This document shows positions 46,117 through 56,885 of a DNA stretch of 64,000 bases, piece by piece. Position 1 is the stretch's first letter. Each line of letters starts with the position of its first letter. The DNA lies in the NCBI GenBank assembly GCA_012103255.1, contig WLXD01000003.1, forward strand, positions 141,984 through 205,983, in the 5' to 3' direction. The translations under genes and the position numbers were made by a program. Source of the DNA: Acidobacteriota bacterium. Its GTDB lineage: Bacteria; Acidobacteriota; UBA890; WLXD01. The notes beneath the pieces are model-generated. The model had not been told where the DNA came from, did not search any database, and was given only the letters and a program-made list of their open reading frames with translations.

Positions 46117-47936
46117 CTACTCGATGCGGCGGAACGTGAAGGTTCCCAGCGGTGCCACCGCTCCGTTGTTCAGGAACGGGAACCCATCAAGGCGCTGGAT
46201 CGTTGCCCTGGGCACCGTCGCGGAATTCGCGGACGTGAACGTTGTGCCGCTGTCGGTGCCCGCGTCGTACGGCTGCAGCGGCACGACGAGTTCGTCAATC
46301 CAGTCGCCGCGCTCCAAAGGCTCAGGCCCGAGACGCCCACAAACCAATCAGGACTGGGCGCGATCATCGACACGAGCGTGACGAACGGAGCTCCCGGGTC
46401 GATGTCGAACTCCAGAGCTACCCGTCCGGGAGAGACCCCGATCGCACCGCCCGAGAGCGTCGAACGAGCGGTGCCCAGATCGATCGCATCCCGCACCTCT
46501 CCGAGGAGGCTGCCCTTGGCCCCGAACTCCGCCATCTCCTTGATGCCGGTTGAGGCGATCTCATCGCGGGCCCAGAACGTTGCCGCGCTGGAGTGCGTGC
46601 CCCCCACGAGGCCGGAGAAATGTGCGCTCGACGGATAGTCGGCGGGATGCGTGGCGGCACTCCAGGTCGCGTCGAACGTCACCTCATAGCGGGCGGCAGG
46701 CGCGGCGTCGGTTTCCACGCGCAGTAACCGGCCGTCCGCGCTGAGCACGTAAAGGAGTCCGTCTGGACCGATACGCATATCGCGGATCGGCCCGAACCCA
46801 TTGCCCCAATGCACCGACCTGGCCTCGGCCGCCTTGTCGACGACGCGATCGGCGAGTGCACCGGCGAGACGCAACCGGTCACGCTGGGCAGCCCTGGGCG
46901 GCAACTCCAACAAATAGATGTCGCCGGCGGCGCTTCCAGCCACGAGTCGGTCACGCAGCTTGGGGCCGTAGGCATCGGTACCGAGAAAGGACAGGCCCGA
47001 TACACCCGGCGCCTTCTTCCAACTCAGTGCGGGATCTCCGTACTCGGCACCGGGCACGACGGGCAGGTCGGACGCCTCGCTCGCCGCATTGCCGTTCTCT
47101 GAATACCGGGCGTCACGGTCGTCTGGCCCCACGATCAGCACCCAGCCGCCGTTCATGCCCGGGGCCGCTGAGTTCAGTTCATCGTACTGACCTGGACCCT
47201 GGTCCAAGAGCCAGGGTGTCCCCGTCAGCCCATCGATCGCGAGTCCGTTGCCGTCGCGTAGCCCAAACGCGAACCAGCGGCGCAGCGTTTCGTCATCACT
47301 GGACGAGAACGGATTGTCGTCGGGGACCATTCCGTCAGGGCTGAGGCGGAAGAGCGCACCGCTTCCGGAGCTCGACCCGTCGTCTATGTTCTGTTCGGTC
47401 CGAGCTGCCCCGAGCCCGAGACTGCCTACCAGCCCGTAGAGCATTCCGTCTGAACCGAATCGCAGCGGGCCGCCATTGAGCTCATTCCCCGCCGCGGCCG
47501 CAACAGCGCCGACTGGAAAGCTGGCGATGCGCCGCGGCTGTCGCAGACGCTTACCGGAGAGCCTTAGCCGAACGACGCGGTTGTCCCGCCAGCGCCCGCC
47601 GCGCTGACTGGAGTAGTGAACGAACACGTGACCGTCATCGGTGAAGTTCGGGCTCACCGCAAGGCCGAGTCCGCCTCGACTCCCTTCTGTAGCCACTCGC
47701 AGACGGGCGACGACACGATCGCTCGCGCCGTCGCGGACTCGCAGTAGCCGTCCAGAGCGCTCGAGCACGAGGACGTCTCCTGCTCCAAGGAAATCGAACG
47801 CCACGGGATCGTTCAGATCGTCGGAGACCAGCACCACGTTCGTGCCCTTCGAATCGACCTCCTGAGAGGTGGCCGGGAGGGCGAGCGCAATACACAGCAC
47901 GGCGGCGGGTAGTGTCCAGCGAGACGAAGACTTCAT
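46117..47936 (-). pseudogene. glucose/sorbosone dehydrogenase-like beta-propeller fused to Spondin_N domain; reading frame broken by 1-nt indel at A/T homopolymer ~46317
   Basis: N-terminal GSDH-type propeller with a signal peptide. The C-terminal …YEVTFDATWSAATHP…PDWFVGVSGLSLW matches Spondin_N and then goes out of frame. The continuation …LERGDWIDELVVPLQPYDAGTDSGTTF… lies in the adjacent frame (46117-46347). Inserting one T in ctttgg would restore …GLSLLERGDWIDEL…. Confidence 0.65.
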
Positions 47937-48030
47937 CGGATGCGATCCTGAATAGAAGCGGAGTAGGCGTGCGAACTTGCTCCCAGTTTGCCGCAGACTC
48001 CCGCACGGTCACTCGAAAAACGAGGTTCAG

Positions 48031-49251
48031 ATGGCGATCGCCAGCGACAGAGTTGAATTCGCGGGCTCCCAGGGCACGCTGGCTGGGCGGCTCGACATCC
48101 CCTGTGCAGAGCCGCGCGCCGTTGCGCTCTTTGCGCATTGCTTCACCTGCAACAAGGACATCTGGGCGGCGAAACGGATCGCCGCGGGCCTTGCGGATCT
48201 CGGGATCGCCGTACTCCGATTCGACTTCACTGGGCTCGGCAGCAGCGATGGCGAATTCGCGAGCACCAACTTCTCTTCAAACGTCGAAGACCTTGTACTC
48301 GCGGCGGAGTTCCTACGGGCCAGGCATCAGGCCCCCGCACTGCTGATTGGCCATAGTCTCGGCGGTGCCGCAGCACTCACGGCGGCGCGGGATATCCCGG
48401 AGTGCGAAGCGGTCGCCACCATCGGGGCCCCAGCCGAGGCGGCTCACGTCCGACACCTCGTTGACGACGCAGCGAGTGAAATCGCGACCGAGGGCGAGGC
48501 GTGCGTGAACATCGGCGGGCGGCCATTCCGAGTCCGACAACAATTTCTGGACGACCTCGAGAATCACTCGCTGGCGTCGAAGCTGTCTGGTCTCGGGCGG
48601 GCCGTGCTCATCTGCCACTCGCCGCAAGACACGGTCGTCGGGATCGACAACGCTCGCGCACTCTTTGAGGCGGCCAGGCATCCCAAGAGTTTCGTGTCGC
48701 TCGATGGGGCGGACCACCTGGTGTCGGAGCCCGCTGACGCGGAGTACGTCGCGTCGGTCATCTCCGCGTGGGCGAGACGCTATCTATCCGGCGTGGAGCC
48801 CGCTGCGCAAGCACCAGACATACCGACCGGCACCGTGCGGGTTTCCGAGACGGGCGCCGGCAAGTTCGCGAATCTTGTGCAAGACGGCCGTCACGCGATT
48901 ATGGCGGACGAGCCGAGCGGCGTCGGCGGTGATGACCTCGGTCCGTCACCCTACGAGCTGCTCGCAGCGAGCCTCGGCGCGTGCACGAGCATGACCCTGC
49001 GAATGTACGCCGACCGCAAGGGCTGGCCCCTCGAGTCGGTCGCGGTCGATGTTCGCCACGACAAGGTCCACGCAGAGGACTGTGCGCAGTGCTCCACGAA
49101 GACCGGTCGCATCGATCGCCTTGCCACGGAGCTTGAACTGTCCGGACCGTTGACCGATGAGCAACTCGACCGGCTGCTCGAGATCGCTCACCGTTGCCCG
49201 GTTCATCGAACGCTCACCGGCGAGATCGATATCCCGGTGAGCCGGCGATAG
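48031..49251 (+). CDS. alpha/beta-hydrolase (BAAT/dienelactone-hydrolase-like) fused to OsmC/Ohr-family domain
   Basis: N-terminal …VALFAHCFTCNKD…IGHSLGGAAAL… (nucleophile elbow GHSLGG). C-terminal …GPSPYELLAASLGACTSMTLRMYADRKGW… is the OsmC-like fold with conserved Cys. Confidence 0.7.
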   Translation: MAIASDRVEFAGSQGTLAGRLDIPCAEPRAVALFAHCFTCNKDIWAAKRIAAGLADLGIAVLRFDFTGLGSSDGEFASTNFSSNVEDLVLAAEFLRARHQAPALLIGHSLGGAAALTAARDIPECEAVATIGAPAEAAHVRHLVDDAASEIATEGEACVNIGGRPFRVRQQFLDDLENHSLASKLSGLGRAVLICHSPQDTVVGIDNARALFEAARHPKSFVSLDGADHLVSEPADAEYVASVISAWARRYLSGVEPAAQAPDIPTGTVRVSETGAGKFANLVQDGRHAIMADEPSGVGGDDLGPSPYELLAASLGACTSMTLRMYADRKGWPLESVAVDVRHDKVHAEDCAQCSTKTGRIDRLATELELSGPLTDEQLDRLLEIAHRCPVHRTLTGEIDIPVSRR

Positions 49252-49725: not shown

Positions 49726-49948
49726 GTCTGCCCCCCTTTCGTGCGTCATGCGATTCAGTACGCCAATCCGTTCTATTCTCGTTCTATCGTTGGCAACCAT
49801 CGGTGCCACGGACGCACACAGTCAAGAGCGCATCGCCGCCGAGCCGATGAGCTACCGAGGCGGCGCCTGGCTGGAGCGGGTTGGACGGCCGGACGAAGAG
49901 CGCCCGCATACAACACCCGCCGCTGCGGGACTGGTATCGCGCCTGCTG

Positions 49949-50998
49949 CTAGGCCGAAGTCAGGCCGTTGGCCTGATCCACCGCATCTTGCGGCGTGAGC
50001 GCATACCCATCGGCGCCGAACACGTTCCATGCCTCTGGAGCATCAGTGAAGCCGGGGCCACCCACGATCACCTTTACATCGGAGCGCTCGCTCGACCTGA
50101 GCGCCGAGATCGTCAGCGCCACGCGGTTGAGCTGGGTCACGATCGACGCGGACAGCGCCACGACATCGGCGTTGTGACTGACCACCGCTTCGGCAACCGC
50201 GTCGGCGGGCGTGTCAGCACCAAGGAAAACCGTGCGCCAACCGCGGGTTCGGAAGAAGTCAGCCACGAAGCGGGCGCCAAGATCGTGCGCGTTGGTCTCG
50301 ACTGCGGCCACAATGATGGTCTTCCCGGTCGGGTCCTGTTTCTCCATCTGCCGGGCAAGTAGAGCACTCGCTCGCGCCGTGGTCTGGGTAACGACGTGCT
50401 CATCAGCAACCGACGCCTCATCGAGGAACCACATCCGGCCGATCTCGCGCTGCGCCGGAATCAGGATCTCGACGTAGGCGCGTTCCGGGCCACGCTCCGC
50501 CGCGATCTCTTCGACGAACTCCATCGCGTCGTCCTGCCGCCCCTCAAGAGCCAGCGACATGTACTTCAAGACCGGACGGTGTTCATCATTGTCCGGGTCG
50601 AGCGCCGACCGGATCGGGGCCGCCCCCGCCCCCAGGGCATCTCGGGCCGCGCCGAAGTAAGGCTCCAATATCTCGGCTGGCTTAGCCGGCAGACTGTCTC
50701 TGAGGATCTCCTCAAGCGCATCAAGAGCCACCGCCAGATCGTCCGGTCTGAGGCCGCGCACCTGAAAGGCGTGCGCGTTCCACCGCGTCTGCGCCCCAAA
50801 CACCGTGGGAGCCTGTGCATCCAACGCCGCTGCCAGTTCGCGCAGTCTTTGAATCTGATTGTCCTGCCAGCGTCCGTGCGCGCCCGGAGCGAAACGCTCC
50901 TCCAGGGCAGCGTCACGCTCGAGCATCAAACTGGCGGCGTGGCCCGCGAAGTTGGTCTCGCCTTGCCGGATCAGGGCCGAGTAGAACGCTTCGTTCAC
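49949..50998 (-). CDS. cobalamin (B12)-binding domain protein: N-terminal unknown region + B12-binding_2 helical bundle + B12-binding Rossmann domain, no DNA-binding domain
   Basis: …IGRMWFLDEASVADEHVVTQ… is the CarH/MerR-B12-like W-x9-EH motif. …IIVAAVETNAHDLGARFVADFFRTRGW… is the DxHxxG His-on motif. Starts with GTG overlapping the upstream TGA (GTGA). Confidence 0.7.
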   Translation of the reverse strand: MNEAFYSALIRQGETNFAGHAASLMLERDAALEERFAPGAHGRWQDNQIQRLRELAAALDAQAPTVFGAQTRWNAHAFQVRGLRPDDLAVALDALEEILRDSLPAKPAEILEPYFGAARDALGAGAAPIRSALDPDNDEHRPVLKYMSLALEGRQDDAMEFVEEIAAERGPERAYVEILIPAQREIGRMWFLDEASVADEHVVTQTTARASALLARQMEKQDPTGKTIIVAAVETNAHDLGARFVADFFRTRGWRTVFLGADTPADAVAEAVVSHNADVVALSASIVTQLNRVALTISALRSSERSDVKVIVGGPGFTDAPEAWNVFGADGYALTPQDAVDQANGLTSA

Positions 50999-51861
50999 GG
51001 CGCCACCACGCTGGCGACCAGGTTGATGCGCTCGCGCGATGACACCATTACGCCACCCGGGCGCTCAACCGTGACGGCGAACAGAGTCGCGTCTGTGACT
51101 GGCAATGTCGGCAGGATGGGCACGACGACTTCTCCGTTCTCCAAAATGTCGAAAACGCCACCATCCACAGGGTAGCGCTCGTCCCGTGCCGAGTCGAAGA
51201 TCCAGAGTTGATATTGGAACTCGTTCGCATCATTGGGCACGAGACCGGCGAAGCGCATGAAGCCGCGCTGCTCCGCCGCGCTCCAGACAACGTCGCCCGT
51301 CGCTGCCGACGCAGTCGGGTCGTCCGTCGCAGTCCACTCGATCGTGACCACGTCGGTACCGGCAACGAGCAGGGCCTCCCGGGCATCGAAAGGAGATAGC
51401 TCAGCAGCGGCCGGGGTCGGTCCGTTCAACTCGCTGCTGGTATCAGGAGAGACAGCTCCGCGAAAGGCCGGGAACCATCCCAGCGCCGCAACGAGCAGCG
51501 CCATCGCCGCCACCGCCCAGGCAGGTGCGGACCCCCGCCGTTCGGGGAACGCGACGAGGTTGTGGTTCCGTTCGACGCCTTCATCTACCGACTGCTGTGG
51601 TTCACCCGCCGGCTCCGGCTGTCGTTCGCACCACTCGTCGCCGGCAATTCTCAACTGCCGTTGGAGCGTCTCTGGCATCTGCGAGGTGCCCCGATCGAGG
51701 GCGAGCATCAACGCCGCAGCGGCCCGATCGAAGCCGTCATGCTCCGCAGATGGCTCCGCGGCAAGCAGGGACTCAAGACGTTCCGACTCCGACGCACTCA
51801 AGCCGCAGGCAGCACGGAGGGCCAGCAGCGTATCGAGTTCCGAGTGCAGGTGAGCGTTCAT
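50995..51861 (-). CDS. anti-sigma factor (RskA/anti-sigma-K-like)
   Basis: The N-terminal helical anti-sigma region (…DTLLALRAACGLSASESERLESLLAAEPS…) and TM segment (WAVAAMALLVAALGWF) are assigned by position and hydrophobicity (inference). The C-terminal domain matches the RskA family (…ALLVAGTDVVTIEWTA…, …FAVTVERPGG…). Its ATG overlaps the sigma-factor TGA (ATGA). Confidence 0.65.
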   Translation of the reverse strand: MNAHLHSELDTLLALRAACGLSASESERLESLLAAEPSAEHDGFDRAAAALMLALDRGTSQMPETLQRQLRIAGDEWCERQPEPAGEPQQSVDEGVERNHNLVAFPERRGSAPAWAVAAMALLVAALGWFPAFRGAVSPDTSSELNGPTPAAAELSPFDAREALLVAGTDVVTIEWTATDDPTASAATGDVVWSAAEQRGFMRFAGLVPNDANEFQYQLWIFDSARDERYPVDGGVFDILENGEVVVPILPTLPVTDATLFAVTVERPGGVMVSSRERINLVASVVAP

Positions 51862-52451
51862 GCCTCACCTCCTGTCGACTGCTCGGTCTCGAGTCTTTGC
51901 CGCACGTACGCAAGGCCACGCGTGATGTGCGACTTCACGGTGCCCAATGGCATCTCGAGAGTGTTCGAGATCTCCTGGTGCGTTAGCCCCTTGTAGACGG
52001 AGAGTTCGAGAACTCGTCGCCGTTCGGGCGGAAGCTCCGCGAAGCTCTCTGCGGCGAGGCGCGCCTCGGCCCCGCGCTCGATGCTGATGTGCTCGTCGGA
52101 TGGAGGCTCAGGCCCCTCGTCGTCGATCGTGTCCAGGTCTAGCCGGCGGCCCCTGCGCCGTAGTCGATCAATCACGCGACGTCGCGCCACCATGGCCACA
52201 AAAGACTGTTCGGACGACTTCGAGCCATCAAAACGACCCGCCGACTTCCACAGTTCGATGAACACCTCTTGTACGGCGTCCTCGGTCTCGGCGGCGTTCC
52301 CCAGATATCGCCTTGCAAGCGACCAGACGAGCCCTCCGTACTGCTGCAGGCATGCCTGCACAGCGGCGGGGTCTCCGTTCGCGATACGCGTAAGCAGCGA
52401 CTCTGTTGACACGTCGTCCACTCGGGGTTGCACGTCGGCTGGCCGCGGCAT
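51858..52451 (-). CDS. ECF (sigma-70 family, group IV) RNA polymerase sigma factor
   Basis: Region 2 (…AVQEVFIELWKSAGRFD…) and region 4 (…LELSVYKGLTHQEISNTLEMPLGTVKSHITRGLAYVRQRL…). The start is taken at ATG 52451 (MPRPADV…); the longer ORF to 52610 looks non-proteinaceous. Confidence 0.8.
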   Translation of the reverse strand: MPRPADVQPRVDDVSTESLLTRIANGDPAAVQACLQQYGGLVWSLARRYLGNAAETEDAVQEVFIELWKSAGRFDGSKSSEQSFVAMVARRRVIDRLRRRGRRLDLDTIDDEGPEPPSDEHISIERGAEARLAAESFAELPPERRRVLELSVYKGLTHQEISNTLEMPLGTVKSHITRGLAYVRQRLETEQSTGGEA

Positions 52452-52648
52452 GGTAACCGGCCGTGACGCTGGCGTAGTTCCAACGCCCAGTGCCGTCACG
52501 GAGTCGAGGTTGCCTGCCGATCGCTTCACGCGGAACTCCTCGAATTGCTCGATTCGCCGGAAACCATGCCTTTCACCGAGTATTCGTAGCCCCCGCGTGC
52601 CCGGATGCACGCTAATTCGGCGCTTGGCGCCACGCTACACTTGCGCCA

Positions 52649-53341
52649 ATGGATACCGCCGAGATCACCGTGAGTGAACCGTTGTCCGGTTCGCACGAAC
52701 TGAAGTTCGAGCTGAAAGCGCAACGCGCCGCTCCTGCGCGCGCGTTCCTCGACGCAACCTTTCGGCCCGATCCGGACTTCCCGGCCGGGCACGTTTCGAC
52801 GATTTACTTCGACACCCCCAACTTGCGGTTCCTGCGCGAGAAGGCCAACTCCGATCACCTCAAGTCAAAGGCACGCCTGCGCTGGTATGACGACGCCGCC
52901 AGCGGGCCGCTTTTCGCCGAGATCAAGAAGAAGGCAGGCGGGCGGAGGCTCAAGCAGCGAGCCCGCGTAATCGCACGTGCTGCCGACCTCGTCTCGGCGC
53001 CGCTCGAATCCGGTGCCTACCGTAGTGTCATCGAGGAACTGGTGGCGCTGGCCGCGATCCCGACCGGCGTGAGCCCGATATTGCAAATCAACTACGGCCG
53101 CAGACGCTACGTAGACACCACCACCGGCTCGCGGATCTCCCTCGACACACAGATCCGGGTCACCAGGATCAACACGCGCCTGCTGTCACGATTCGACCCG
53201 CTCCCGCTCCGGTCCGCGGTACTCGAGGTGAAGGGCCCCGAGGCGGAACCGTTGCGCCGGCTGGGCCCGCTCGTTTCGTTCGGGTGCCACCGAGCAGCGT
53301 TTTCGAAGTATCTTCGCTGCTACGAGAAAGCTTGCGCATGA
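52649..53341 (+). CDS. VTC-domain (CYTH-like/polyphosphate-polymerase-like) protein
   Basis: …HELKFELKA…FRPDPDFPAGHVSTIYFDTPNLRFLREK…LKSKARLRWYDD… matches the conserved N-terminal pattern of bacterial VTC-domain proteins (ExK, YFDT). Confidence 0.6.
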   Translation: MDTAEITVSEPLSGSHELKFELKAQRAAPARAFLDATFRPDPDFPAGHVSTIYFDTPNLRFLREKANSDHLKSKARLRWYDDAASGPLFAEIKKKAGGRRLKQRARVIARAADLVSAPLESGAYRSVIEELVALAAIPTGVSPILQINYGRRRYVDTTTGSRISLDTQIRVTRINTRLLSRFDPLPLRSAVLEVKGPEAEPLRRLGPLVSFGCHRAAFSKYLRCYEKACA

Positions 53342-53403
53342 ACACGGCCGGTAGACGCCGGCAAAAGTAGACACCCCCTGTAGCGATCCCCAGTCGCCGA
53401 AAA

Positions 53404-54105
53404 ATGATCGAACAACTCTGGGACGGCCTGCAGGGCTTCGGCTCCGGGGACATGGCCAGTCTTGGGCGAGGTGCGCTCTTGCTCGGGCTTGGCGTCTCCC
53501 TCGCCGCATCGCTGTTCGTTGCGTATCTGTACCAGGTGTTCTACCGCGCCCGCGCAACGGGCTCACAGGTGCATCACGCGTTTCCCCTGATGGGGCTCGC
53601 CATCACCGCGATTTTCATCAGCGTGCAGTTTTCGCTACCGCTGTCGCTCGGCCTACTCGGCGCCTTGTCGATTGTGCGATTCAGGACACCGATCAAAGAA
53701 CCCGAGGAGATCGGCTTCATCCTGCTCGTCATCGCGACATCGTTAACGGCGGCCACGTTCAACCTGGGCTTCCTGGCGCTGTTGCTCGGCGTAGCCGTGG
53801 CAGCACTTCTCGTCATGCGGATGGACCCGAGCTTCCTCTCGCGGCGCAAGGCCGACGGCATGTTCATGGCGACTCTGCCGGCGGGCGCCGATCCGGACGC
53901 GCTGGACAAGGTCGTGGGCGCTCTGAAGGCTGCCGCCGGGCACGGAACCATCGACAGCATTACCGAGAGCGAGGACGAAGTTGCCGTGGCATTTCGAATC
54001 GCCCGAATGAAGGCCAACGACACGCCTGAACTGATCCGGAGCGTGAAGGAGGCCGCCCCCGGGGTCCGCACCAGTGTCTTCTTCTACCGTGCCGGCGACG
54101 TCTAG
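53404..54105 (+). CDS. DUF4956-family membrane protein
   Basis: Three TM helices then a soluble C-terminal domain. …ALSIVRFRTPIKEPEEIGFILLVIATSL… is characteristic of the family that co-occurs with VTC proteins. Confidence 0.55.
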   Translation: MIEQLWDGLQGFGSGDMASLGRGALLLGLGVSLAASLFVAYLYQVFYRARATGSQVHHAFPLMGLAITAIFISVQFSLPLSLGLLGALSIVRFRTPIKEPEEIGFILLVIATSLTAATFNLGFLALLLGVAVAALLVMRMDPSFLSRRKADGMFMATLPAGADPDALDKVVGALKAAAGHGTIDSITESEDEVAVAFRIARMKANDTPELIRSVKEAAPGVRTSVFFYRAGDV

Positions 54106-54113
54106 CGGCGACG

Positions 54114-55847
54114 ATGTGGACGCGGCGTAACGACAGCAAGGGCAGTCCGGTTGCCATGTGTGCCGGCCTGGCGGCGCTCACGGCCGTCTTGTTTTGGTTT
54201 GATAGCCGCCCCATCGCAGCCAACGCCCGCGAGCAACTGCAGGTTCGGACCGCGCCCACTCAAGCGTTCGGGTCTGGCGCCACGGTGAGTGCTCTGCGCC
54301 AGCTCGGCCGGATTCATCCTCACCCGTTTGATCTCTCCGTTGACGTGAATTCGCTGGCAGCGGCTGGCCCCGATGGGAGGCGTCAGGTCGAGGCCTACGC
54401 CCTGGACCCGGAGGTGCCGGCAGAGCTGCCGAGCAGTGCGTCGCTGCCTGCCGACGTGTGGACCAACGCAGAAGTTGATGTTCTATCGCTCACGCTGCGC
54501 GACCGAGCAGCCGCCGCCCTCCTCGCCGAACCGGATCAACGCGGACTGGCATCTGAGCGCCCTGGCTACGTGACCCTGGTTCGCGGTGGCCGGATAGCCT
54601 TCGCGACCGGCGTCGGCGTTCGGATTCACGGAGGCACGAGCCGAGTACGCTCCGAAAACAAGAGCTTCCGGATCTACTTCCGGGAAATCTACGGAGAAGA
54701 TGGGATGCCCGCGGAGTTGGTGTTCGACGACGGGCCCCGCGATCCTCTCCGCGAGATCATCGCCCACAACGATGTGCGCACCGATCCGACCGGACAGGCC
54801 TACCGCTTCGTCAACGCCATGGCATACGCCGTCGCCGAACGCCTCGGGAGTCTCGTGCCGCGACTCCGCCCCGTCCGTTTCTTCCTGAACGGTGAATTCA
54901 AAGGTGTCTATTTCGTCACCGAGCGCCTCGGGCCCGACTACCTTGCGGCCCGTTTCAGCCACGCCAACTTCACGGCCGCCAGAACTCGCCGCGACAACTT
55001 CTCAGGATGGTTCGAGGGCGGCGATCGCGATGCCTACGACGCGTTCGTCGGCCAATACGTCACGGATCGGAGTCAGCCCGATTGCACGCTTAACGCGCGC
55101 CGGGCGGAGCGAGATGTCGATCTGGACAACCTGACAAACTGGTTCGTGGGCGTGCTCTTCAACGGAACCACTGACTGGTATCAAGGGTTGATCGCGCGCG
55201 ACGAGGCGGCGGAAGGGCCGTGGTTCTGGGTGAACTGGGATCTCGACCACAGCTTCACCACGCGCCGGATCGGCGGCAGCACTCCGTGGGCCCGCGACAT
55301 GTTCCGGCTCGTCCTCAACCGCGGTATCCGGCCGCGTTCGGTAATCCTGTCGCGCCTGATCAACGGCGATCCGGAATACCGTGAGCGGCTCGCCCGGCGC
55401 CTGGTTGATGCGCTCAACCACGAACTCACGGAAGAGTTCCTACGGGATCTCGTCGGGCAATACCGTCGCATCGCTGACACCTACGGAATCGAGGATCAGG
55501 TCTTTCTCGATCGAATCGAGACCTTCTTCGAGCACCGCCCGGACGTAATCTTGCGGCAGGCCGCCGAGCATCTGGGCTACGGAGCGCCAGCATCGGTCGT
55601 CGTCAAAATGAGCGACGGTGGCGCCGGGACCGTCGACGGACACGCGTTCGTCGAGCGCGCCGAACTCCGCTACCTGCGGGGCATGCAACTGGAGATCCGT
55701 GTCCCAAGAGCGGCGGGTCGCAGACTGTCCGCGTGGCGCATCGACGGTCGCGAGCAGGCCGCGAGCGGCGCGCGGCTCACTGTCACTGTGGAAGCAGACA
55801 CGACGATCGAGGCGATCCTGGAAGGACGTGACGCGGCGCGGAGATAG
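54114..55847 (+). CDS. CotH-like atypical protein kinase family protein, secreted
   Basis: …VRIHGGTSRVRSENKSFRIYF… (CotH 'rGnsSr…KkSyrikf' block) and …WFWVNWDLDHSF… (CotH D-x-D nucleotide-binding block). N-terminal hydrophobic anchor. Confidence 0.6.
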   Translation: MWTRRNDSKGSPVAMCAGLAALTAVLFWFDSRPIAANAREQLQVRTAPTQAFGSGATVSALRQLGRIHPHPFDLSVDVNSLAAAGPDGRRQVEAYALDPEVPAELPSSASLPADVWTNAEVDVLSLTLRDRAAAALLAEPDQRGLASERPGYVTLVRGGRIAFATGVGVRIHGGTSRVRSENKSFRIYFREIYGEDGMPAELVFDDGPRDPLREIIAHNDVRTDPTGQAYRFVNAMAYAVAERLGSLVPRLRPVRFFLNGEFKGVYFVTERLGPDYLAARFSHANFTAARTRRDNFSGWFEGGDRDAYDAFVGQYVTDRSQPDCTLNARRAERDVDLDNLTNWFVGVLFNGTTDWYQGLIARDEAAEGPWFWVNWDLDHSFTTRRIGGSTPWARDMFRLVLNRGIRPRSVILSRLINGDPEYRERLARRLVDALNHELTEEFLRDLVGQYRRIADTYGIEDQVFLDRIETFFEHRPDVILRQAAEHLGYGAPASVVVKMSDGGAGTVDGHAFVERAELRYLRGMQLEIRVPRAAGRRLSAWRIDGREQAASGARLTVTVEADTTIEAILEGRDAARR

Positions 55848-56104: not shown

Positions 56105-56225
56105 GCGGTGAGCCTAGATTGGTCGTACTACAGTGTCCAACGGTGTTGGCAGTCGGCGTGACGAGGTCGACTCATTCAAACTACGATCTGGGCTGGAACG
56201 CCGTCCCCACCAGGAGACCACCGCG

Positions 56226-56885
<660 letters not shown>

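Follow-up and report, generated by a model that had tools for sequence, protein, structure and literature searches.

What would a cobalamin-binding protein be doing in one operon with an extracytoplasmic function (ECF) sigma factor and its anti-sigma factor? The question is raised by positions 49949-52451 of a 64-kb window (by which is meant the whole stretch of DNA analysed, 64,000 nucleotides of contig WLXD01000003.1 from an Acidobacteriota bacterium), where three co-directional open reading frames (ORFs) on the minus strand encode, in this order, the sigma factor, the anti-sigma factor and the cobalamin-binding protein, hereafter the B12 protein. ECF sigma factors are among the main signalling routes of bacteria, and the B12 photoreceptors reported so far are, to our knowledge, DNA-binding repressors (CarH/LitR), antirepressors (AerR/PpaA) or regulators of enzymes (photocobilins). 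The answer proposed here is that the B12 protein, whose family is linked with a single ECF sigma group in Acidobacteriota, Planctomycetota and Gammaproteobacteria alike, would be a cytoplasmic adenosylcobalamin (AdoCbl) light sensor that gates the activity of the sigma factor through protein contact, a proposal to which we give about even chances.

A translationally coupled operon

The sigma stop and the anti-sigma start share an ATGA at 51861-51858 (minus strand), with the strong Shine-Dalgarno sequence AGGAGGTGA immediately 5', while a GTGA at 50998-50995 (minus strand) combines the anti-sigma stop with the GTG start of the B12 gene, a start that is consistent with the N-termini of 15 homologues. 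The coordinates and overlaps of the three genes, from which the first-pass annotation had set out, were verified in the sequence, and Pfam agrees with its domain calls (ECF sigma factor, RskA-like anti-sigma factor, B12 protein without a DNA-binding domain). A 4-nt overlap is ordinary in operons and by itself tells no more than chance, so that any significance beyond chance has to come from the recurrence of the B12/sigma linkage across other genomes. The genes and their parts are as follows.

51858..52451, minus strand: ECF sigma factor, 197 aa, with sigma2 and sigma4 only (Pfam Sigma70_r2, r4_2 and Sigma70_ECF)
50995..51861, minus strand: RskA-type single-pass anti-sigma factor, 288 aa (Pfam RskA_C at residues 115-271)
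51577-51861, minus strand: cytoplasmic anti-sigma domain of the anti-sigma factor, residues ~1-95
51463-51528, minus strand: hydrophobic segment of the anti-sigma factor, residues ~112-133
51049-51519, minus strand: extracytoplasmic RskA_C domain of the anti-sigma factor
49949..50998, minus strand: photoglobin-B12 protein, putative AdoCbl photoreceptor, 349 aa (from Pfam, structure model, fold matches and family alignment)
50627..50998, minus strand: its N-terminal photoglobin (phycobiliprotein-like globin) domain, residues 1-124 (from a domain profile and a domain model)
50348..50578, minus strand: its B12-binding_2 four-helix cap, residues 141-217 (W190 at 50429-50431, E200-H201 at 50396-50401)
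49958..50320, minus strand: its Rossmann-type B12-binding domain, residues 227-347 (putative lower-ligand His238 at 50285-50287, within N-A-H-D-L-G)

Nature of the B12 protein

The B12 protein, which is identical to GKS06_11485 of an Acidobacteria metagenome-assembled genome (MAG), matches B12-binding_2 at residues 150-214 and B12-binding at residues 227-333 in Pfam, and the same scan detects no DNA-binding domain or helix-turn-helix (HTH) in it, including those of MerR type, the N-terminus being a globin instead. Its best NCBIfam match is CarH, far below cutoff, and corrinoid methyl-carrier models come next. The AlphaFold2 (AF2) model, built on a 16-sequence alignment with a mean predicted local distance difference test score (pLDDT) of 91.7, predicts seven N-terminal helices (residues 2-124), a four-helix bundle (141-217) and a Rossmann domain (227-347). 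Its top Foldseek matches in the PDB are the B12 domain of a MerR-family protein of Chloracidobacterium (C. thermophilum), T. thermophilus CarH and the photocobilins at 30% identity, with template modelling (TM) scores of 0.77-0.88 (normalised to target) against the CarH and C. thermophilum B12 domains. These best fold matches bear out the earlier view that the B12 module is of the photoreceptor (CarH) kind. The cap motif W190-x9-E200-H201 that had been noticed on first reading is present in the window protein (WFLDEASVADEH) and is well conserved among 82 full-length family members (W190 in 82/82, E200 in 81/82, H201 in 75/82, with Arg in the other 7). The lower-ligand loop, which had been read as DxHxxG, is really NxHxxG (N236-A-H238-D-L-G241), and Asn is the family norm; in the same alignment H238 is found in 82/82, N236 in 79/82 and the Gly in 74/82. 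Three of the four B12-domain signatures termed 'light-responsive' in PMC11796333 (GxxW, EH and GxxxP) occur in the window protein, the fourth position (GxxH) being Thr here and Gly in most relatives. Judged by its sequence, the B12 module is of the CarH type, and both AdoCbl binding and photochemistry are predicted for it. The variant in which Arg replaces the upper His201 (W-x9-E-R) is that of L009, L011, L015, L037, L051, L053 and L061, some of them sigma-linked, and post-photolysis chemistry in these members may differ from the bis-His adduct of CarH.

The ~125-aa N-terminal extension, previously listed as of unknown type, proved to be a photoglobin by sequence profile and by fold. It matches no Pfam or NCBIfam family in the window protein (one relative has a weak Phycobilisome match), and Foldseek with the full-length model returned B12-domain matches only; it was a domain profile and a separate domain model that revealed the globin. 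The profile of 38 N-terminal domains matched the photocobilin globin (8J2X/8J2W, E = 7e-8; 8J2Y, 1e-4), with allophycocyanin next (0.026), and residues 1-132, modelled by themselves (pLDDT 91.4), fit photocobilin 8j2w with a TM score of 0.75 and a root-mean-square deviation of 2.1 Å, allophycocyanin with a TM score of 0.80 and smURFP with one of 0.83. Since the N-terminal domain is a photoglobin, the whole protein is a photocobilin-like photoglobin-B12 sensor, a kind of protein described in 2021-2024: photoglobins fused before or after B12-binding domains were described computationally (Schneider et al. 2021, PMC8717448) and the B12-then-globin order was characterised experimentally as the photocobilins (Zhang et al. 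2024, PMC10979010).

The globin of this family departs from the bilin signature as defined for related proteins (CxQD; Asp270 of SasPcob; PMC10151467 and PMC10979010). The Cys position of CxQD is Trp (W44) in 82/82 relatives and the key Asp is N47 in the window protein and His in 63/82 relatives, while the pocket Trp and Arg, aligned with Trp296 of SasPcob and with Trp289/Arg297 of AbPcob, are kept (W73 in 82/82, R81 in 77/82). Because the Cys and Asp of the signature are replaced, a classical bilin site is unlikely, and the probable role of the globin is in interaction or in tuning. When 1.84 billion cluster representatives were searched with a profile, 2114 proteins with this N-terminal domain were found, 1096 of them at E <= 1e-10; among the best 150 of the 2114, most are ~350 aa long with the domain N-terminal, and the remainder are mainly shorter sequences. 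Two proteins, P0209 (717 aa) and P0211 (724 aa), repeat this photoglobin variant four to five times in tandem, contain no B12 domains and have weak Phycobilisome matches in Pfam.

Recurrence of the B12/sigma linkage

Relatives of the B12 gene were collected by scanning metagenomes with the family alignment (at least 507 relatives, 80 loci kept) and genomes with a narrower family alignment (60 loci, mostly from uncultured Gammaproteobacteria/Chromatiales, with some from Acidobacteriota, Phycisphaeraceae, Pirellulaceae and Rhodospirillaceae); a scan of genome contigs with the single protein as query had given no matches, and the narrower alignment succeeded. Sigma genes were sought by iterative hidden Markov model (HMM) searches of all six-frame ORFs in these loci, and the counted set comprises the 59 loci that remain after dereplication at 90% identity and have 1.6 kb or more of flanking sequence to either side. 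A sigma gene lies within 1.6 kb of the B12 gene in 23/59 loci, with zero sigma-family matches farther away in the 662 kb covered. The sigma factors adjoining B12 genes elsewhere are 44-56% identical to that of the window, which points to a single ECF group.

Six arrangements are found, namely sigma > anti-sigma > B12, convergent, divergent, B12 > sigma, B12 > sigma > short anti-sigma, and sigma > B12. The first is that of the window, L008, L052, L118 and L119, and a Phycisphaerae MAG has its genes in this order too (sigma > RskA > B12), at 34% identity. Three further organisms have an ECF sigma gene directly 3' of the B12 gene and no anti-sigma gene, and another has a convergent pair of sigma and short anti-sigma genes beside it. 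Sigma-linked members are dispersed over the entire tree of the B12 family, within which are nested a clade linked to resistance-nodulation-division (RND) efflux genes and a large gammaproteobacterial clade without an adjacent sigma gene. The conservation of gene order that the first-pass annotation had set as a check is borne out, and beyond it the linkage recurs in all three groups, with a shared promoter besides (see below).

Beside the B12 gene the anti-sigma factor has three states, being full-length in some loci, cytoplasmic-only in others and missing in yet others. The nearest relatives of the window protein, with 55-56% identity, lie on short contigs; directly upstream of one is the C-terminus of an RskA, and upstream of the other (L154 2-226) is a complete 74-aa gene encoding the cytoplasmic anti-sigma domain only. 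The extracytoplasmic part is missing in nine or more loci, and in B12 > sigma operons with overlapping or abutting genes the whole anti-sigma factor is absent, which leaves the B12 protein as the only candidate regulator there. The route through the anti-sigma factor that had been proposed earlier is not required, the B12 gene being coupled directly to the sigma gene in at least 12 distinct loci that have no anti-sigma gene at all.

Anti-sigma factors reduced to the cytoplasmic domain (~74-120 aa, without a transmembrane segment or RskA_C) and still encoded beside the B12 gene were noted in L154, L009, L016, L020, L031, L061, L064, L076, L129 and L137. B12 > sigma operons without an anti-sigma gene occur in lower-GC bacteria (L035 4248-7593; L003-L006, L041, L042, L044 and L045), and 5' of the B12 gene in operons of the L035 type are encoded a conserved 317-aa protein without a Pfam match and an exported SnoaL_3-like protein. 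The clade linked to membrane fusion protein (MFP)-RND efflux genes is monophyletic, its B12 start overlapping the 3' end of the ACR_tran gene with no sigma gene adjacent, and comprises L007 (2799-7089) and 18 further loci (L032, L040, L043, L048, L050, L054, L057, L058, L062, L063, L065, L067, L070, L072, L079, L080, L085 and L088). This arrangement suggests, possibly, a light-controlled efflux pump.

A shared promoter and the putative regulon

A motif derived from the upstream regions of six sigma genes, which belong to different loci, reads TGAATC(C/T)-N-GCGAA with exactly 16 nt between GAATC and GCGAA (short form TGAATCC-N16-CGAA), and was counted with at most one mismatch. In 23/85 metagenome loci a copy precedes the B12 gene by 35-170 nt, mostly by 65-71 nt, which amounts to 1.16 per kb where the background has 0.061 per kb (19-fold), and a copy precedes this gene in 35/56 loci of the independent genome set (2.5 vs 0.054 per kb, 47-fold). 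Most loci with a motif-bearing B12 gene have no adjacent sigma gene, and a sigma gene, the motif or both are found in 42 of the 59 well-flanked loci. The other genes preceded by the motif encode fasciclin-domain proteins (10 loci), the sigma factor itself (6), a cyclopropane-fatty-acid-synthase-like methyltransferase (3), a short-chain dehydrogenase/reductase (SDR; 3), a SOUL-like protein (2) and an amine oxidase. The B12 gene of L090 has a divergent SDR gene on one side and a CMAS gene downstream. In the same locus (L090 7051-7494, on a Gammaproteobacteria MAG chromosome) a DUF427 gene begins one base past the B12 stop, with the SDR, a Ferric_reduct membrane protein and the CMAS gene nearby. 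Fasciclin, CMAS, SDR, amine oxidase and photolyase-like genes would give the predicted regulon a photo-oxidative flavour in related loci.

In the window, a position weight matrix (PWM) built from the sites of other loci has its best match on either strand of the 64 kb at 52609-52580 (minus strand), 158 nt upstream of the sigma ATG (TGCATCCGGGCACGCGGGGGCTACGAATAC, score 14.9). Because this score is under the training minimum of 18.1, the site is a probable promoter rather than a certain one. A scan of the operon region for sigma-70 promoters gave no match. The third-best match (score 8.8) is just upstream of a gene for an alpha/beta-hydrolase-OsmC fusion; we estimate that a match would fall by chance near one of the few neighbouring gene starts in a few percent of cases, and it is possible that the hydrolase-OsmC gene belongs to the regulon. 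The second-best match, at 54287-54316 (minus strand), has a perfect TGAATCC -35-like half-site and no -10, lies within the CotH-like gene, which is encoded by the other strand, and is probably due to chance. At the other end of the operon a hairpin is weak evidence for a terminator, since terminator-like sites in the region are not above shuffled expectation. The regulatory sites considered are the following.

52580..52609, minus strand: candidate sigma-dependent, autoregulatory promoter TGCATCC-N15-ACGAAT (-35 at 52609-52603, -10 at 52587-52583)
49916..49929, minus strand: terminator-like GC hairpin, 20 nt 3' of the B12 stop codon, possible operon end
47949..47978, plus strand: weak promoter-motif match TGAATA-N16-GCGAA, just 5' of the alpha/beta-hydrolase-OsmC fusion gene

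The sigma and anti-sigma factors

By sequence, the closest solved relatives of the window sigma factor are M. tuberculosis SigK (4nqw_A, 1e-19) and then R. sphaeroides RpoE (2q1z, 3e-16), and it scores 108.8 bits against the SigK model NF007228, whose cutoff is 226. There is a single Cys (C34) in the 197-aa protein, which therefore does not have the C133/C183 redox pair of SigK. A longer sigma ORF of 250 aa from the GTG at 52610 was dismissed because homology begins near residue 11 of the 197-aa form and because the candidate promoter overlaps this GTG. The anti-sigma factor has at least 2009 homologues, none of the best 120 being fused to a B12 domain, and no relative was detected for it among solved structures. 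Its closest RskA homologues without a B12 gene are flanked by a fasciclin gene on one side and, on the other, by a convergent gene (L150 5951-8425 and L152 6185-8587) that takes the place of the window's B12 gene and encodes an 800-824-aa fusion of a photolyase/cryptochrome-like domain and a flavin amine oxidase, plus DUF3253/DUF2256.

Proposed mechanism and rival explanations

The mechanism that we put forward starts from an autoregulated three-gene operon encoding a SigK/RpoE-related ECF sigma factor, an RskA-type membrane anti-sigma factor and a soluble photoglobin-B12 protein, which has neither a signal peptide nor a transmembrane segment. The B12 protein would bind AdoCbl in a base-off/His-on manner via H238, with W190, E200 and H201 as the cap, and light would split the Co-C bond and thereby change its conformation or oligomeric state, as in CarH and photocobilins. 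In the cytoplasm, this change would shift how the protein contacts the sigma factor or the complex of sigma factor and anti-sigma domain, and the sigma factor, freed or held, would drive a regulon of the photo-oxidative-stress type and, as feedback, the production of more sensor. The sequence is compatible with the B12 protein acting as a second anti-sigma factor and equally with its acting as an anti-anti-sigma factor. A role as sensor rather than as pure output is favoured by the translational coupling of the B12 gene to regulator genes, by a linkage that is kept while the extracytoplasmic sensing part of the anti-sigma factor, or all of it, is lost, by a close relative of the module (P0151) that is fused to a GGDEF output domain, and by the photocobilins, which have been shown experimentally to control partner enzymes via protein-protein contact (PMC10979010). 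A more far-reaching version, which we hold tentatively and at somewhat less than even chances, is that a widespread SigK/RpoE-like ECF group receives its light input in the cytoplasm from the photoglobin-B12 protein, that this protein is the first photoreceptor acting directly as an ECF anti-sigma or anti-anti-sigma factor, that light is a physiological signal for RskA-type systems, and that the erosion of the anti-sigma factor traces a passage from envelope sensing to cytoplasmic light sensing.

Several observations weigh against a light sensor that acts on the sigma factor. About 60% of the well-flanked relatives have no adjacent sigma gene, in one derived clade the B12 gene closes an RND efflux operon instead, and 7/82 members, some of them sigma-linked, carry Arg in place of the upper His201. 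The window's own promoter site scores below every training site, and no clear motif was found upstream of most B12 > sigma operons, the exception being L045 with a site that has one mismatch. A domain-profile search and the best anti-sigma homologues revealed no fusion of the B12/photoglobin module to a sigma or anti-sigma domain. The interaction, the cobalamin binding and the light response of family members are predictions, and all members come from uncultured organisms. To these are added three observations that suit a different explanation, in which the photoglobin-B12 gene is an output of the regulon only, i.e. a target of the sigma factor without feedback, whose product is a photoreceptor for some other partner or sequesters or protects photolabile cobalamin during light stress: the gene has its own sigma-type promoter and no adjacent sigma gene in 19/59 loci, a position behind the sigma factor's promoter is equally expected of a mere output, and there is a precedent in the bphO/bphP photoreceptor genes of the P. 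syringae RpoE-type regulon (PMC5507510). The place of the B12 gene among typical output genes (SDR, DUF427 and CMAS) in L090, the co-transcription of one clade with an RND pump and the failure to find the fusions just mentioned fit such a role as well. We nevertheless regard this main rival as rather unlikely, since the B12 gene is translationally coupled with anti-sigma or sigma genes, since the linkage outlasts the anti-sigma factor where that has been eroded or lost, since all 23 adjacent sigma genes are within 1.6 kb, and since relatives of the module (the GGDEF fusion, the photocobilins) act as input domains.

The B12 protein could also be a sensor of cobalamin status or redox, with no sensing of light, that reports to the sigma module as the AerR/PpaA-type B12/SCHIC proteins do for CrtJ/PpsR. 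That it binds B12, has no DNA-binding domain and presumably acts through protein contact is in accord with this, as are weak AppA_SCHIC matches in 5/16 relatives, the Arg at His201 in some members and the redox sensitivity of SigK itself (PMC7509140). However, the protein has the W-x9-EH cap as well as the light-responsive signature GxxW/EH/GxxxP, its best matches by structure are light sensors without exception, both the regulon and what surrounds related sigma modules have to do with light (photolyase-like fusion, CMAS) and a single Cys leaves the window sigma factor without the SigK redox pair, so that we consider a light-independent sensor improbable. Hardly credible, finally, is a corrinoid methyl carrier (MtbC/MtgC-like) of a methyltransferase system that lies beside the sigma operon by chance, a disfavoured role for which there are sub-threshold NCBIfam matches to MtgC/MtbC and the name 'methanogenic corrinoid protein MtbC1' borne by relatives in some sources. 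It was dismissed because no methyltransferase partner is encoded in the window or in related loci, because CarH is the best NCBIfam match (all matches being far under cutoff), because the protein has a photoreceptor-type cap and a photoglobin domain, and because its association with the sigma factor and its promoter goes far beyond chance.

If the proposed gating of the sigma factor by a photoglobin-B12 protein is true, B12 photobiology would gain a class of output that is new, a large ECF family a signal that can be tested, and synthetic biology a compact, orthogonal, green-light-controlled sigma switch. The recurrence of the pairing and of its promoter in many uncultured bacteria points to a route, so far undescribed, by which light could turn on a photo-oxidative stress programme. 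With the promoter motif and the predicted regulon at hand, a heterologous host would allow a direct test of the hypothesis.

Neighbouring genes

The oxidative-stress genes that had been pointed out as neighbours of the operon fare differently. The gene for the alpha/beta-hydrolase-OsmC fusion (plus strand, ATG at ~48031, stop at 49251) is indeed close and convergent, a single GNAT gene separating it from the B12 gene, whereas that for a 1-Cys peroxiredoxin (56133-56885, plus strand) is 3.7 kb off, past an unrelated VTC/DUF4956/CotH cluster, and its linkage to the operon was dismissed on account of this distance and of the lack of a motif. The idea of a photo-oxidative regulon likewise survives in part, with such genes in related loci and a weak motif match at the hydrolase-OsmC gene, but with none at the peroxiredoxin gene. 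The three genes of the cluster, encoding VTC-domain, DUF4956 and CotH-kinase-like proteins (window 52649-55847, plus strand), are divergent from the sigma operon. Farther out, a gene at 46170-47936 (minus strand) encodes a fusion of glucose/sorbosone dehydrogenase (GSDH) and Spondin_N with an N-terminal hydrophobic, signal-like segment.

Comparison with known systems

Both the kind of protein and the kind of sigma/anti-sigma pair are known; it is the coupling of a photoglobin-B12 protein to an ECF sigma factor that we have not found described. In line with the first impression that no described system matches, the combination of B12 protein and ECF sigma factor was not found in the ECF reclassification, photoglobin, photocobilin and SignatureFinder papers, whose figures or supplements may depict it, or in text searches of the literature.

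The B12 protein is a domain-permuted relative of the photocobilins (SasPcob and AbDPcob; PDB 8J2W/8J2X/8J2Y), which likewise combine a CarH-type B12-binding_2 plus B12-binding module with a phycobiliprotein-like globin. The B12 parts are 30% identical, the globins are homologous (7e-8, TM score 0.75) with the pocket Trp and Arg kept in both, and stand-alone photocobilins have also been proposed to work through protein-protein contacts. The domain order is opposite, however, the globin of the window protein being N-terminal, an order that was mentioned without characterisation by Schneider et al. (PMC8717448). Asp270 of SasPcob is replaced by Asn in the window protein and by His in 63/82 relatives, a residue that AbPcob, a weak binder of biliverdin, has as well, and the Cys position of photoglobins by an invariant Trp in the window family. 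The published contexts of photocobilins and photoglobins are two-component, STAS/SpoIIE, WhiB and HTH, and ECF sigma/RskA is not among them. CarH/LitR proteins (T. thermophilus CarH, 5C8D), which serve in the light control of photoprotective genes, have the same four-helix cap with W-x9-EH and the same Rossmann domain with a lower-axial His, but a MerR DNA-binding domain where the window protein has a globin. Since the window protein is without a MerR domain, its output would not be through direct operator binding.

As for the sigma module, the closest solved sigma factor belongs to the SigK-RskA system of M. tuberculosis (ECF19; relatives ECF18), in which an RskA_C anti-sigma factor is likewise co-transcribed with a minimal sigma2-sigma4 ECF sigma factor. 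Fasciclin (cf. mpt70/mpt83), cyclopropane-synthase-like and amine-oxidase genes are found behind the promoter in loci related to the window. The predicted regulon thereby resembles that of SigK, for which we take mpt70 and mpt83 to be fasciclin proteins, and amine-oxidase and ufaA1 genes to lie beside sigK. The window sigma factor is, however, far under the NCBIfam SigK cutoff and has a single Cys in contrast to the C133/C183 redox pair of SigK (PMC7826278, PMC7509140), and no B12 protein is described in the SigK system. The activating signal of SigK/RskA-type systems is stated to be still unknown (PMC7509140). The second-closest solved sigma factor is RpoE of the RpoE-ChrR system (R. sphaeroides; P. 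syringae PSPTO_1043/1042), whose promoter TGATCC-N16-CGTA is similar, not identical, to the TGAATCC-N16-CGAA found here (PMC5507510) and whose core regulon overlaps with the one predicted (photolyase, cfaS, SDR and flavin amine oxidase; PMC5507510). ChrR consists of a zinc anti-sigma domain and a cupin, whereas the window anti-sigma factor is RskA-type, and the input of RpoE-ChrR is singlet oxygen acting on ChrR, whereas the window module includes a dedicated photoreceptor-like protein.

AerR/PpaA have as partners the repressor CrtJ/PpsR and a photosynthesis gene cluster, none of which is present in the window or in related loci. An ECF sigma factor and a B12 photoreceptor do come together in the light response of Myxococcus (CarQ/CarR and CarH) and of Streptomyces (LitR-LitS). 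There, however, the B12 protein represses by binding DNA, as part of a transcriptional cascade or of a parallel branch, whereas that of the window is without DNA binding and is encoded by a gene translationally coupled to sigma or anti-sigma genes.

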